A stretch of 63,014 nucleotides of DNA from a virus. Its lineage: Duplodnaviria > Heunggongvirae > Uroviricota > Caudoviricetes. Every line of letters starts with the position of its first letter. Position 1 is the first letter of the stretch. The translations under genes were made by a program, and so were the position numbers. This document shows positions 13,628-53,116 of this stretch, piece by piece. The stretch lies in the IMG/VR virus record IMGVR_UViG_3300045988_147415; one strand, given 5' to 3'. The notes under the pieces are model-generated. The model was not told where the DNA came from. It saw only the letters and a program-made list of their open reading frames with translations, and did no database searches.

Positions 13628-13689
13628 AATGGCAGCCTCCTTTTGCTAATTTAAGGAGCTACCGCGTGAGGTTCCAATCTCAATGGCGG

Positions 13690-13790
13690 TAGCACTGACT
13701 GGGTTGGAACTACCGGCGCAAAAGGGAACCGGCCTGCCTTTCGGCAGCCCAGCCAGCACTACCATTGATCTCTGAGCTAAACGCTACGTA
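13690..13790 (-). ncRNA. candidate c4-like antisense regulatory RNA (tRNA-like features), immI copy 1
   Basis: Minus-strand transcript carries GUUCCAAC complementary to GAUUGGAACC sites both upstream and about 42 nt before the icd start; a UAGCUCAG...GGUAG D-arm-like segment suggests RNase P-type processing; boundaries approximate. Confidence 0.3.
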
Positions 13791-13811: not shown

Positions 13812-13835
13812 CAAAAAAAGACGCTTTCGGCGTCT
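13812..13835 (-). terminator. Rho-independent terminator upstream of the c4-like region
   Basis: Hairpin AGACGC-TTTCG-GCGTCT followed on the minus strand by UUUUUU. Confidence 0.5.
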
Positions 13836-13940
13836 GTGTCGCCTTTTGCATTATCCGGGGTTCCAATCCCGGCACCCGTTTTTCTAAGGTGCCGTAGAAA
13901 TATACCCCACGATAATGCCAGGGCGCAACAGTCAGTATTT

Positions 13941-38667: not shown

Positions 38668-38799
38668 TGCTTGAAACTTTATTAGGTTGCGGTGCCTGGT
38701 GCCTCCAGGTGACGTTAACCAGTTAACAATTAACGCCGGGATGTTTGACTTAACCACTAAGGAGGATTGTTTTAACTGTTCCGCGTGCGCTTAGCCGCA

Positions 38800-38920
38800 T
38801 TCACCGCAATGGTAAGAGCACTTGGCTGGCTGGGCGGCGATGACGCCTGTACGCATTTGGTGATCCGGTTCTGCTTCCGGCATTCGCTTAATTAGCCAAA
38901 TACTCTTAACGTTGCACTGG
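38800..38920. repeat. hairpin trailer element, copy 1 (immediately 3' of tRNA-Ser)
   Basis: Conserved TCACCGCAATGGTAAGAGCACTTGG paired with CCAAATACTCTTAACGTTGCACTGG about 70 nt away. Confidence 0.4.
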
Positions 38921-39538: not shown

Positions 39539-39625
39539 TGGTGGGGAGTGATGGAGTCGAACCACCCGAGTCGCAATGACAGTAGATTTACAGTCTACCC
39601 CGCTACCCCTACGGACTAACTCCCC
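39539..39625 (-). tRNA. tRNA-Tyr (anticodon GUA), long variable arm
   Basis: 87 nt; anticodon stem-loop GTAGACTGTAAATCTAC as in E. coli tRNA-Tyr; acceptor GGGGAGT/ACTCCCC; CCA encoded. Confidence 0.7.
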
Positions 39626-39630
39626 TAAAT

Positions 39631-39707
39631 TGGCGATGGTGGGTGGATTCGAACCACCGACCGACAGCTTAGAAGGCTGCTGCTCTATCCTACTGAGCTA
39701 CACCATC
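39631..39707 (-). tRNA. tRNA-Arg (anticodon UCU, reads rare AGA)
   Basis: 77 nt; acceptor GATGGTG/CACCATC, anticodon loop CTTCTAA, T-loop TTCGAAT, CCA encoded. Confidence 0.8.
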
Positions 39708-40912
39708 ACTTGCCGGGTACGTCTCCGGCGAGGGCTTCCACCTCCGTATGCTTTTCGGCGCACCGCGCCCTGGCTGCAATTCGGTAACAGGGGATGCACA
39801 ACCCTGGCTTCCAGCGTGATTAGCGCCTTCAGCATGACGGGATATACCCGTTACAAGAGATTTCCCAGGATGCCATTAACCAATGGCTGTTACGCGGGAG
39901 GGACGTAACAGGTAAGGGCGCTGACCAGAAAGACCTGACCCTTCTCATTCATCTGGTTAATCACACCAGCGCCCTTGCCTGTTATGCCTCCCCGTTCCCT
40001 AATACACAGACGGGGACACTCTGCGGTCGATTTTTTGACGGGGGACGACTCATACCCCGTGGCGTCTGGCTTCTTAGGCCGCTACCATCATCAGATCATC
40101 GTTTGCATTTACTTTAATGGTCGGTTTCTAAACCGCCGCAAAGTCGCTAACCATGACGAAAACCCTAAAAAAGCCCACCCGAAGATGGGCAAATACGCTA
40201 CATCTCACACAAGAAAGAAGCCGACTGCCTGAGCTGGATTCACTTTCAAATGCCCGCTGAAAGGGATCACAAGTCGGCTTCTTTCTTGATGCGGCACTCT
40301 CTCCGCCCGTCACCGCTCTGTCTCGGTTGTCGCGTTTGCCACGCCAGCCGTAACGAGGTTTAAAGTCTTTACACGTTTCCATCACTCGACTGCCGTCTGT
40401 GGCTGTTCGTTGCAGCGGGGGTGCCTCCCCCTGGGGATATCCCCGGCCTTACCCCATTCTTTCAAGACACAATGCAAGGCCACATCCGCATAGGTGCATT
40501 ACCGCAACATTAAGGAGACTCAGGGCAAAAGGTAACCGCCACAAAAATCCCTATGCCTCCTTAATGTTGAAGATGTGCATTGATGATTAGATGCAGCATG
40601 TACCGTTACTCTCTGCCGGACCATCATCAATGAACACCTTAAAAAGACCTTCCGTGGCTCAACATGTATTGTCGTTTACTCCGCAAAGTGCTCTCTCTGA
40701 AACCACTTTCCGCACTAAACCTGCTGAACTTTGGCCTGCACGGTGCCAAAGCGTGCTCTTGCATTACTATACATTTCTAACACTTTAATTTGTTAAATGC
40801 TGGTGGGAGAACAATAACCAATAAGTGACTATCAAGCCCAGCAAGCGAAACGTGGGTACCGCCCACCAGCAAGGAAAATTCTATGTTAAGTTATCTTCAC
40901 AATCAATACATT

Positions 40913-40940
40913 CGAATTGTGATTTTAGATTTCTAACACA
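40913..40940 (+). promoter_or_regulatory. operator-like motif ATTGTGATTTTAGATTTCTAACACA (second copy at about 40768-40792)
   Basis: Good match to the recurrent motif at the edge of the 1.2-kb noncoding region. Confidence 0.4.
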
Positions 40941-42149
40941 TTATTTCCCATAAAGATCTTCTACACCCCCATTCTTCTTATCCCATTCGTTCGCCCATAC
41001 CCGGCAAGCGTCAATGATTTCCTGACGACGATCTCCTTGCATGAACGGGATGCTTTCATGGAAACAGCTTGGAATGCAGGCCACACTGAATACAGTATCA
41101 AACTCCGTCTGCTTGATTGCCTCCAGCGTCTCCGGACGCATTTTTAATTCATCGATTGGCGCATCCTTAGAGTCCATAATCCGGCGATATAAGCGCGGAA
41201 AATCCGTCTCCAGGTACGCCATAATTTTATCTGCGAGACATTCGTCTATGTCGGTATTCCAGTCCTTTTCGAAGCCCGGCAGGCGATAGTAAAGCGGCGT
41301 TCCCCATACCGATGGGATCACATCCATCGTTAACAGGCGATTGGTTCTGATTTGTTGATGGTAATTAGCCGTCAGCAGTGCTTCGCCACGCTGCCCAGTT
41401 TCCGCAACCAGGCCGTGTGGATACTCATGGATGTAGGCAATGGCATCCCTTCCATCATACATAAGTGGAAATGTCTCTGGTCTTTGTCCCATGCCACAAG
41501 CACGGTTCAGATCGTGACCAAGCTGTGAGCACTCTCGCTTTAATGTTTCGATAATGCTCTGCGCTGTAGCCAACTTTTTACGCAGTGTGACGCCTTCGCC
41601 TTGATAATCAATGCATTGCTGATTGAGCTTGGTTAAACGCTCTTTTAGTTCCCGGCGCTCTCTTTTCAGCGTGCGGTTATCCTTCTCCGCAACATCCAGC
41701 CGCTTTGTCAGGCTGGGCGGATAGTCTTTTTTGTAACGGTTCAAATCGGCTTCGGCAGATTTACGCAGTGTATTTGCCTGTTCAAGACGCGCTTCCAGAT
41801 TGCCGATCTCATTACGCATATTCGCGGCAAATTGATTAACTGCATCACCCAGGCTTTCAACTGTCGCTGATACGCCTGTGACTTGTGAAAAACGGATCAA
41901 GCCATCATTAACGGCTTGTTGGTATTCCTCAAACTGATCCACCAGCTTATTGTAATCAACTGCCCCATCATCAAGCAGCTTGTTGATTTCCGCCACCAGG
42001 TTATCTGTAGTGGCAATGACACTCTCGTGCAGTCGCTTTGACAGGTCATCACCCGGATTCCGTTTCTGTATAAGAGCGATTTGTGTGCGCAGCGTTTCAA
42101 TTGCTGTCGAGATAATTTCCAGATTAGAAGTATCAGTGTGTTGACTCAT
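40941..42149 (-). CDS. hypothetical protein (N-terminal coiled-coil, C-terminal globular domain)
   Basis: Start set at internal ATG (MSQHTD) because the ORF-track start is GTG; operator motif directly upstream. Confidence 0.5.
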   Translation of the reverse strand: MSQHTDTSNLEIISTAIETLRTQIALIQKRNPGDDLSKRLHESVIATTDNLVAEINKLLDDGAVDYNKLVDQFEEYQQAVNDGLIRFSQVTGVSATVESLGDAVNQFAANMRNEIGNLEARLEQANTLRKSAEADLNRYKKDYPPSLTKRLDVAEKDNRTLKRERRELKERLTKLNQQCIDYQGEGVTLRKKLATAQSIIETLKRECSQLGHDLNRACGMGQRPETFPLMYDGRDAIAYIHEYPHGLVAETGQRGEALLTANYHQQIRTNRLLTMDVIPSVWGTPLYYRLPGFEKDWNTDIDECLADKIMAYLETDFPRLYRRIMDSKDAPIDELKMRPETLEAIKQTEFDTVFSVACIPSCFHESIPFMQGDRRQEIIDACRVWANEWDKKNGGVEDLYGK

Positions 42150-52773: not shown

Positions 52774-52829
52774 AGTTACGGCCTCACTAACAGGTTTAAC
52801 AACCTGCTACCCGCTGTCAAACAGGTGGC

Positions 52830-52920
52830 AGGACGTGACAGGGTTGACAGACTGGCGTTAGTGAAACCAGCAGGCCGAAGCCTCCCCATCACGCCCCACC
52901 ATAATTCGGGCGTAACGCGG
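52830..52920 (-). ncRNA. candidate c4-like antisense regulatory RNA, immI copy 2
   Basis: CUGUCAAC element complementary to UUGACAGC sites located about 41 nt before the icd start and again about 170 nt upstream; same geometry as copy 1 with a different sequence; boundaries approximate. Confidence 0.3.
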
Positions 52921-53116
52921 TTTACGGACACAAAAATACCGCAATATCGGAAATCTGCGGTTGTCCGCACTAACATTCAGGCTGTCAAACCTGGTCGCAG
53001 AATTTGCTACGACGGCATGAATATAAGCCTGAAAACATGGAAGATCAACTAAAAATTTCAGCAATGGATGACTTCAGTCGATGATGCAGATCATACATTC
53101 CGATTTAGAAACAGCA

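Follow-up and report, generated by a model that had tools for sequence, protein, structure and literature searches.

What does a phage keep in 1.2 kb of DNA that encodes no recognisable protein? The question is raised by the interval between the gene pmgS and a cluster of transfer RNA (tRNA) genes, positions 39,708 to 40,940 of the IMG/VR virus record IMGVR_UViG_3300045988_147415, a P1-family phage-plasmid whose 63,014 nucleotides (nt) are called the window below. A preliminary description, made from the letters alone, had noted several long-stem hairpins and two operator-like sites in this interval, and had suggested that it may encode small RNAs (sRNAs) or a cis-acting origin or partition-type element. 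The interval appears to consist of two unlike halves: on the right (40194-40940) a structured leader of the type found in Escherichia phage D6, and on the left (39708-40165) a conserved structured RNA of 458 nt, read from 40165 to 39708, which by its sequence is derived from transfer-messenger RNA (tmRNA).

Results

A tag frame of the tmRNA type

The 458-nt RNA carries a frame of ten codons and a stop (Table 1), to be compared with the tag ANDENYALAA of Escherichia coli tmRNA. The frame has neither a start codon (no AUG) nor a Shine-Dalgarno sequence, and an in-frame UAG lies 8 codons upstream; its form is that of a tmRNA tag, i.e. entry at a resume codon without any initiation signal, followed by a stop. 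In all 127 copies collected with a pattern in which the first three tag codons were fixed, the frame has 10 codons and ends in a stop, and the copies encode 13 peptide variants (e.g. ANDDVVLMAA, ANDEQFLAVA, ANDDLMLMAA), all beginning with AND and most of them ending in AA or VA. Among the 40 distinct versions there is no insertion or deletion, TAA is retained in 40/40, the entropy by codon position is 0.56/0.30/0.83, the third position being the most variable, and GCC, GCT, GCG and GCA are all used as the final alanine codon. The linker that leads to the resume codon measures 12-13 nt in all enteric families; in E. coli tmRNA, 11 nt separate the first pseudoknot (PK1) from G90. Because exactly ten codons and the TAA are kept, the third position is the variable one, the A at -4 is invariant, and both start codon and Shine-Dalgarno sequence are lacking, the conservation of this frame carries the hallmark of translation, with entry in the manner of trans-translation.

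The covariance search of Rfam that the preliminary description had recommended points to the same place with sub-threshold scores. The family tmRNA_permuted (RF04321) aligns with the linker and tag of the window at 24.1 bits, against a threshold of 47, and with those of P1 and four unrelated phages at 22-33 bits, likewise below threshold; RF01850 scores 11.8 against a gathering threshold of 84, and the tmRNA model RF00023 gives no match in the window.

A 5' arm complementary to host tmRNA

The segment that precedes the linker pairs co-linearly with nt 57-105 of E. coli tmRNA, i.e. with the 3' half of PK1, the resume codon and codons 1-5, through 36 Watson-Crick and 2 G·U pairs. Read 5' to 3', the phage strand of this duplex is GGUUUUCGUCAUGGUUAGCGAC, a five-position gap, UUUGCGGCGGUUUA, a one-position gap and GAAACCGACC; the tmRNA strand, read 3' to 5' from nt 105 to nt 57, is UCAAAAGCAG, a three-position gap and CAAACGCUGAUAAAAAACGCCGAAAAAUGCUCCGGUUGG. 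The complementarity score is 57 against 34.9±4.2 for shuffled arms, of which 1/5000 reached that value, and the most conserved 5' blocks of the element, GUUUUCGUC, AGCGAC and UUUGCGGC, are the reverse complement of E. coli ssrA. The arms of other families are directed at the same target (nt 53/57-104; z = 7.1, 7.0, 6.8, 4.5 and 4.1), and a profile built on 33 arms places 73 of its 74 matches in 0.9 Mb of bacterial DNA on the template region of ssrA, opposite strand.

The arm is fitted to the host molecule rather than to the template that it accompanies. With host tmRNA as partner RNAduplex computes -36 to -51 kcal/mol, with the tag region of the element itself -12 to -24; by complementarity score, the arm matches the host better in 52/52 distinct pairs of arm and own tag (mean 52.8 vs 24.6); and where the two templates differ, the arm follows the host, with GUC rather than AAU before the resume codon and GAC GAA AAC rather than GAU GAU CUG after it. 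Of 17 windows taken along the element, the first alone is complementary to tmRNA (1/17), and no second docking site on tmRNA was found with them. The predicted cofolding minimum includes the intermolecular helix, with a ΔΔG of about -9 kcal/mol below the monomers, and in the phages Akira and pAh6-C and in locus L110 a predicted promoter puts the transcript start a few nucleotides before the arm. The complementarity is therefore beyond chance, conserved, and specific for the target over the element itself, the weak cases being Serratia phage 3M and L110. Enteric arms score 54-63 on most Enterobacterales tmRNAs, 42-57 on those of Yersinia, which are intermediate, and 38-52 on those of Vibrio and Oceanisphaera; Aliiglaciecola scores as high as E. 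coli.

Downstream pseudoknots and the search for a tRNA-like domain

PK1 is absent from the element: the antisense arm sits in its place, and two pseudoknots follow the tag and its stop-codon hairpin. These structures occur in two forms, type A in the window and type B in relatives of the non-P1 type. In 28 diverse type-B sequences 93.3% of the cells are paired, against 35-49% in slid controls, and in 12 of the 22 pairs both partners have changed; the score for covariation, 0.302 vs 0.141 in shuffles, and the number of cells changed on both sides, 62 vs 18.6, were each reached in 0/500 shuffles. The type-A pseudoknots (window, P1, 3M, ECBP1) differ in sequence from type B, and compensatory changes are seen in them by eye. 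Beyond them, the window has a long hairpin with a variable tip (the Hvar module), which shows G·U/G-C alternation at alignment columns 194-248 and 213-238, and a P1-type 3' domain whose structure is weakly supported because sequence variation is limited; in the related locus L031, three one-sided changes are wobble-compatible with the predicted pairing, including a pairing of the arm with 39806-39826. A homology of this 3' domain to PK2-4 of tmRNA was considered and dropped, the likeness amounting to an 11-nt identity (E = 0.62).

The hairpin module, with the consensus (A)ACAGGUAAGRGCAYU ... AGUGCUCUUWCCKGUU (39896-39993 in the window), recurs beside tmRNA-like RNAs at many loci. Its tips are hypervariable and sometimes hold a T-arm-like GGUUCGAAUCC.

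Does the element possess a tRNA-like domain of its own? No tmRNA is called by ARAGORN in the window, nor in any of 120 related copies, Rfam is equally negative, and the acceptor stem, T arm, CCA and G3·U70 that define such a domain are not detectable in the element. The P1-type RNA runs for 458 nt up to the first base of the tRNA and ends in ...CCCGGCAAGU, without CCA. Minimal forms (CS01, L023, pAh6-C) consist of the 5' block with the arm, the tag and two pseudoknots, and nothing more. In most families a tRNA or a tRNA-like domain follows the element, the neighbouring tRNAs of the relatives being ordinary Asn, Arg, Met or Ile tRNAs. Long type-B relatives (L006, L010, L007, L046, L082 and others) have a tRNA-like end 180-700 nt past the tag, in which a helix GUUGUGGUG/CACCACAAC is accompanied by two hairpins, one D-like and one T-like, the latter covarying (GCCGG/CCGGC, UCUGG/CCAGA, GUAGG/CCUAC); CCA is present in some only, and position 3 is U-A, without G3·U70. 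We take this terminal domain of the long versions to be a signal for processing by RNase P. Two N4-like loci, L004 (ECBP1, ~1890-2020) and L102, also contain tRNA-like genes with inserts of ~100 nt which ARAGORN does not call; their acceptor stem covaries (UUAUCAGU/ACUGAUAA vs UUACUGGU/ACCAGUAA), the T arm is normal and the CCA is encoded.

Since the tRNA-like domain that defines a tmRNA was not detected, the element is not filed here as one. On the present comparisons it is an RNA derived from tmRNA that has the template only and joins to it an arm directed against tmRNA; we have not found such an architecture described.

Distribution of the element

Sensitive blastn with 40164-39971 matches unannotated DNA in 206 phage records, which include Ackermannviridae (Serratia phage 3M, PhiSH19), the N4-like ECBP1, the T1-like CS01, Akira and Aeromonas phage pAh6-C, and a pattern scan of IMG/VR adds 120 further loci. 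The element is also present, without annotation, in 561 of 5426 complete E. coli genomes (~10%, via P1-like phage-plasmids) and in 620 plasmids. In SJ46 (NC_031129), JL22 (ON018986) and several plasmid records, 'hypothetical protein' genes have been placed over the tmRNA-like RNA; these are probably miscalls.

The operon and its D6-type leader

Positions 39629-41200 are 98% identical to phage D6, the interval itself 98-99%, and 39629-40193 are ~89% identical to P1, P7 and SJ46. Every feature of the interval lies on the minus strand, between the end of pmgS at 40941 and the genes for tRNA-Arg(UCU), Tyr, Thr, Ser and Met at 39707-38221. The strand is assigned because of the tag frame, the terminator, the tRNAs, the promoters of other phages and the G·U pairs; folding energy was uninformative in this respect, both strands giving -175 kcal/mol. 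The counterpart locus of P1 comprises Pban with the C1 operator Op72ab, a 'dicF-like region', trnA and trnT, tciABC and ban, and the D6 record carries no annotation between pmgS and the tRNAs. In the P1/D6 alignment, the shared sequence opens exactly at the intrinsic terminator (40190-40165) and extends to the tRNA; this stretch is ~90% conserved and the flanks differ.

Both operator-like copies reported earlier are confirmed, on the minus strand, at 40770-40783 and 40926-40939. Their motif, RTGTTAGAAAWNTA, occurs at 14 sites in the window where 0.26 are expected, and is probably the operator of a D6-type repressor, related to the P1 C1 consensus and distinct from it; by our own reading, the two have TCTAA in common. 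Sites elsewhere in the window include 14428, 19657, 30925, 32335, 42175, 43218, 53120 and 54322. Eleven related loci were aligned at 83-99% identity, and both operator copies, TTGATT-17-TAGAAT and the -10-like TATAGT are conserved among them; in diverged loci the -10-like hexamer is retained as TATACT or similar, although the 19-nt spacing of that second candidate promoter is poor. As at Pban/Op72, whose position they occupy, the operator-like sites stand beside candidate promoters and upstream of tRNA/tci genes, with the synteny of P1 and D6. We interpret the whole interval as the promoter-proximal non-coding portion of a repressor-controlled minus-strand operon, the D6-type counterpart of the P1 Pban/Op72-tRNA-tci operon.

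The hairpins listed by the preliminary description all fall within the D6-specific leader. The inverted repeat for which 14 bp had been given is in fact a perfect stem of 17 bp (40210-40226/40272-40288) with a 45-nt loop, and the 13-bp repeat is perfect as described (40505-40517/40557-40569), or 21 nt long at 86%; no perfect stem of at least 13 bp arose in 300 shuffles of the region (0/300), the largest being 11 bp. The third, a GC hairpin GGGGGTGCCTCCCCC, was located at 40417-40431. That the region holds no convincing open reading frame (ORF) was borne out as well: the longest, of 85 amino acids, run through the hairpins and the terminator, and the one on the minus strand is broken by TGT->TGA in related loci. 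A search of Pfam and PHROG with eight ORFs of the region gave no meaningful match, the sole PHROG matches falling over the antisense of tRNA genes; protein coding was rejected. Conserved structure in related genomes, which the earlier text had made a touchstone, does exist: in L079, hairpin A shows two compensatory exchanges, and hairpin B, whose loop is hypervariable, keeps its stem through an A-U to G-C exchange. The suggestion of small RNAs thus stands for a non-coding region with predicted leftward transcription and conserved RNA structure; what it had overlooked is the tmRNA-derived RNA gene itself (39708-40165) together with the intrinsic terminator (40165-40190).

The sequence 40194-40940 is confined to D6-like elements (2 phage records and 120 plasmids), and a 721-nt stretch of the leader folds with a z-score of -5.0. 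In our reading the right half is a structured leader, not translated, of an operon under repressor control, and its structure could possibly control read-through of the terminator or furnish an sRNA made of hairpin A and the terminator. The stretch 40165-40288 (minus strand) has the layout of an Hfq-type sRNA of ~125 nt, with hairpin A, a U-rich linker and the terminator; it is the D6 counterpart of the P1 'dicF-like' stretch, and has only weak matches to MicA and STnc240. An identity with DicF was rejected: in spite of the label that P1 gives to the neighbouring stretch, the covariance model RF00039 finds no match in the window at E up to 10, nor on the P1 stretch at E up to 5.

Within the leader, the ~100-nt block 40308-40407 is restricted in its spread to D6-like elements and three other contexts, a Pantoea plasmid and two viral contigs (L250, L260), in which it recurs at 81-85%; L249 1501-1613 is a listed location of it. 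In those contexts the block precedes the variable-tip hairpin module and a 3' domain of tRNA-like form, as in the long tmRNA-like elements, and the arrangement hints at a modular family of non-coding phage RNAs that have tRNA-like ends.

Table 1. Features of the interval and of its downstream border, in the order of transcription (all on the minus strand)
Feature	Positions	Strand	Details
Operator-like motif, copy 1 (GTGTTAGAAATCTA)	40926..40939	-	Directly after the pmgS stop codon; kept in 11 related loci
Candidate sigma-70 promoter	40878..40906	-	TTGATT-17-TAGAAT; consensus scan 9/12; both hexamers kept in related loci
Candidate second repressor-controlled promoter	40766..40796	-	Operator copy 2 (40770-40783) abuts the -10-like TATAGT (40766-40771); TTAACA 19 nt upstream
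Putative D6-type structured untranslated leader	40194..40765	-	Only in D6-like phages/plasmids; RNAfold z-score -5.0; compensatory changes in L079
Leader: hairpin	40567-40643	-	
Leader: hairpin B	40505-40569	-	
Leader: GC hairpins	40433-40444, 40417-40431	-	
Leader: conserved block	40308-40407	-	
Leader: hairpin A	40210-40288	-	
Intrinsic terminator (GCCCAUCUUCGGGUGGGC + U6)	40165..40190	-	Terminator scan; first element of the module common to P1
5' arm	40119..40164	-	46 nt complementary to E. coli tmRNA nt 57-105
A-rich linker, 12 nt	40107..40118	-	Counted from the resume codon, A at -4 and U at -1 never vary
Tag reading frame	40074..40106	-	GCA AAC GAT GAT CTG ATG ATG GTA GCG GCC TAA = ANDDLMMVAA-stop
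Stop-codon hairpin	40068-40080	-	Just after the tag; pairing tested in type-B relatives
Pseudoknot a	40026-40060	-	H-type; type A form in the window
Pseudoknot b	39989-40023	-	H-type; type A form in the window
Long variable-tip hairpin (Hvar module)	39896..39993	-	Inverted repeat I1; recurs in many phages
P1-type 3' domain (predicted)	39708..39895	-	Helix GUAACAG/CUGUUAC; RNAalifold on 12 P1-type sequences
3' domain hairpins (predicted)	39872-39887, 39837-39851, 39757-39769, 39712-39729	-	Plus pseudoknot-like CAGGG/CCCUG
tRNA-Arg(UCU)	39631..39707	-	ARAGORN and Rfam; adjoins the tmRNA-like element directly

Neighbouring genes

The tRNA that adjoins the element is Arg(UCU) in the window and Asn(GUU) in D6 and P1. 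The two versions, both of which occur among related loci, have an identical acceptor stem and a nearly identical T arm, and the difference (39631-39707) looks like an exchange of the anticodon arm. The window has in addition a tRNA-Tyr (39539-39625) not present in D6. Between tRNA-Met and tRNA-Ser, 38688-38808 (minus strand) matches the sRNA STnc100 at 39.4 bits (threshold 47, E = 3.5e-6), and the ECBP1 locus has a weaker sub-threshold match. At gathering threshold, Rfam recognises in the window two C4 antisense RNAs, isrK and the c4 a1/b1 target region, the matches lying at 13682-13769, 52821-52906, 13814-13892 and 52974-53026.

Discussion

A proposed model for the action of the RNA on host tmRNA

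The model that we propose combines the arm, the tag template and the position of the element in a single chain of events. Expression would begin near the two operator-like sites; the transcript would cross the structured leader of ~680 nt and meet the terminator (40190-40165), read-through of which would lead into the 458-nt tmRNA-derived RNA abutting tRNA-Arg. A cut by RNase P at this downstream tRNA would free the RNA and create its 3' end, a processing step that we infer from the arrangement of the locus. The arm would anneal in vivo to host tmRNA, PK1 being opened and the host resume codon buried in the duplex along with the first five codons. The end of the intermolecular helix would then replace PK1, with the phage resume codon 12 nt away, compared with 11 nt in host tmRNA, and a ribosome under rescue by host Ala-tmRNA·SmpB would continue translation on the phage template, so that its product would receive the phage tag in place of ANDENYALAA. 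In tmRNA, PK1 can be replaced by a simple hairpin and an upstream A is needed for the choice of frame; both facts are compatible with such a docking.

That the phage RNA, docked on host tmRNA, hides the tag template of the host and supplies its own has, in our estimation, a probability of about 0.45. With slightly less assurance, we suggest that many enterobacterial phages, P1 included, encode a template-only RNA that parasitises host tmRNA and has a phage peptide appended to the products of stalled ribosomes. In view of its location in phage tRNA clusters, the element may be a 'spare part', by analogy with those phage tRNAs that bypass host anticodon nucleases (PMC10264068).

Several observations weigh against this model. 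The arms of Serratia phage 3M (z = 2.4) and of L110 (z = 1.5) are individually non-significant, and that of the Aeromonas phage is complementary around the resume codon only, again without significance, in a comparison set of host tmRNAs that included Oceanisphaera and Zobellella and no Aeromonas tmRNA. Shuffled arms already attain -23 to -33 kcal/mol on the 363-nt target, so that the energy z-scores are just -2 to -5.7, and single nhmmer matches of the arm profile are weak (~11 bits), their placement alone being informative. The P1-type arm has an internal option, pairing with 39806-39826, which the families do not have in common and which falls short of the host site in strength; it could be a masked state of the RNA. 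The duplex of ~40 bp might simply be a substrate of RNase III. Delivery of a template by base pairing has its precedent only in two-piece tmRNAs, in which the coding piece is half of the tRNA-like domain. Finally, the phage tags are still ssrA-degron-like, with a hydrophobic and Ala-rich C terminus, and the gain from the exchange of tags is therefore less evident, since in a screen of C-terminal tags such sequences were potent ClpXP degrons (bioRxiv 10.1101/2024.01.29.576913).

Alternative explanations

Could the RNA act as an antisense inhibitor only? It would then block or destroy host tmRNA, for instance through RNase III, and shut off tagging, the frame being an untranslated leftover or a mimic. 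Long antisense duplexes are classical substrates of RNase III, and the explanation draws on the same complementarity to tmRNA and on the fact that no tRNA-like domain is detectable. A frame that is never translated would not, however, retain its 10 codons, its TAA in 40/40 versions, its variability at the third position and its use of four Ala codons; the A at -4 and the 12-13-nt linker are kept across 13 peptide variants in unrelated phage families, and the downstream pseudoknots are likewise under selection. We consider it unlikely, but it is the strongest of the alternatives. Somewhat less likely still is a self-contained rescue RNA that dispenses with host tmRNA, by means of either a tRNA-like part that has escaped recognition or the adjacent tRNA or tRNA-like domain, the arm being one strand of an internal P2-like helix. 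The possible pairing of the P1-type arm with 39806-39826, which three changes in L031 preserve, the tRNA that abuts the P1-type element, and the long type-B forms with their terminal tRNA-like domain, covarying T-like hairpin and, in some, CCA are all in its favour. Yet from family to family the internal partner changes both its location and its sequence, and the host site always offers the stronger pairing; the minimal forms are devoid of any tRNA-like part, nothing unusual marks the neighbouring tRNAs (Asn, Arg, Met or Ile), and the tRNA-like domains lack G3·U70 and mostly CCA; moreover, they are joined to the template by their 5' end, so that the RNase P cleavage which they need would separate the two.

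The remaining explanations deny the RNA a trans function. The position between the terminator and the tRNA cluster, within an operon leader, would suit a purely cis-acting leader or spacer that serves the tRNA/tci genes by controlling read-through, transcript stability or tRNA processing, with a likeness to tmRNA devoid of function in trans; the right-hand 680 nt is probably such a leader. In the case of the left half we regard this as improbable, as lytic phages of other families have the core under a promoter of its own and unaccompanied by tRNAs, and neither coding-type conservation of the frame nor host-specific complementarity is expected of a spacer. A decaying, functionless fragment of a captured ssrA gene would account for the sub-threshold Rfam scores and the missing tRNA-like domain; it would hardly account for ~90% conservation between P1 and D6 while the flanks differ, for the presence in 561 E. 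coli genomes and 206 phage records, for helices that covary or for a frame intact in 127/127 copies, and we give it very little credit. Least credible of all is the origin, partition or incompatibility site offered by the preliminary description. Long inverted repeats and repeated motifs of the protein-binding kind do speak for it, but tandem repeats or iterons and an AT-rich unwinding element, both sought in the region, were not found there (GC 0.43-0.60 throughout), the repeated motif is dispersed over the genome as a repressor operator would be, and the P1 equivalent of the shared part is annotated as the leader of the ban operon. What is conserved is of RNA type and belongs to one strand (tag frame, G·U pairs, terminator). 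This idea is left without support.

Significance

Nearly all bacteria possess trans-translation by tmRNA-SmpB, which is also an antibiotic target. To our knowledge, its tag template has always been seen within the same RNA, or within the two pieces of the same gene. If the docking model is true, this would be the first natural re-programming of trans-translation in trans by a second RNA and the first virus to rewrite the quality-control tag of its host, i.e. a new mode of control of ribosome rescue and a new type of phage-host interaction; if the antisense part alone works, it would still be the first phage RNA known to target tmRNA. The element is common, also in lytic phages of the therapeutic type (Ackermannviridae, N4-like, T1-like), and as it is unannotated everywhere, it affects genome annotation and possibly the biology of phage therapy.

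Comparison with known systems

In the searchable full-text literature, of which the P1 genome paper was not part, we found no description of such an RNA. Censuses of tmRNA list phage ssrA in mycobacteriophages, in Bacillus phage G and, reduced to the tRNA-like domain (TLD), in DS6A, with no enterobacterial phage; the 2012-13 census of bacterial viruses in RefSeq had it in mycobacteriophages only (PMC4131195), and the 2025 census collects 79 phage tmRNA sequences with ARAGORN and BLAST-based tools, which miss the element. The genes of the mycobacteriophage Bxz1 group and of phage G, like the element, are phage genes derived from ssrA; those of the Bxz1 type, unlike it, are complete tmRNAs found by standard tools. 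DS6A, whose TLD-only fragment shows that interference with host trans-translation is within the reach of a partial tmRNA (PMC4131195), keeps the tRNA-like domain only, and the element is its mirror case, with the template only and an antisense arm.

With bacterial tmRNA (ssrA; RF00023) the element shares a 10-codon tag that starts GCA AAC GA- (A-N-D), ends in Ala and has no start codon, an A-rich stretch upstream with an A at -4, a stop codon in a hairpin loop and downstream pseudoknots; its 11-nt string GUGGAAGCCCU is identical to E. coli tmRNA PK3. It differs from tmRNA in lacking the acceptor/T-arm domain, CCA and G3·U70, and in that PK1 and the 5' half are replaced by sequence antisense to tmRNA. 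Its best Rfam match is the family of the two-piece (circularly permuted) tmRNAs of Alpha- and Betaproteobacteria and cyanobacteria (RF04321, RF01849-51; PMC11915505), in which, as we propose here, the tag template is on a separate chain from the CCA end and is held by base pairing. In two-piece tmRNA, however, a single gene of one organism yields the two pieces, of which the coding one gives the 5' strand of the acceptor stem; in the case of the element, the second piece would be the complete tmRNA of the host, paired at its template region.

The leader of the P1 ban operon has the same order as the window, i.e. repressor operator(s), leader, the same terminator hairpin, the same stretch of ~460 nt and tRNAs. 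In the P1 record the conserved stretch is unannotated, the 'dicF-like' label covering ~95 nt upstream of it, and the D6-type leader differs from that of P1 in length (~680 nt vs ~155 nt) and is unrelated in sequence. P1 and P7 also provide a parallel for an RNA of this kind in C4, which is present in the window too and which, as we propose for the element, is a phage RNA that pairs with a specific target RNA. Unlike C4, the element would have as its target a stable RNA of the host translation machinery, would pair over ~46 nt rather than through a short seed, and would carry its antisense arm fused to a translatable template.

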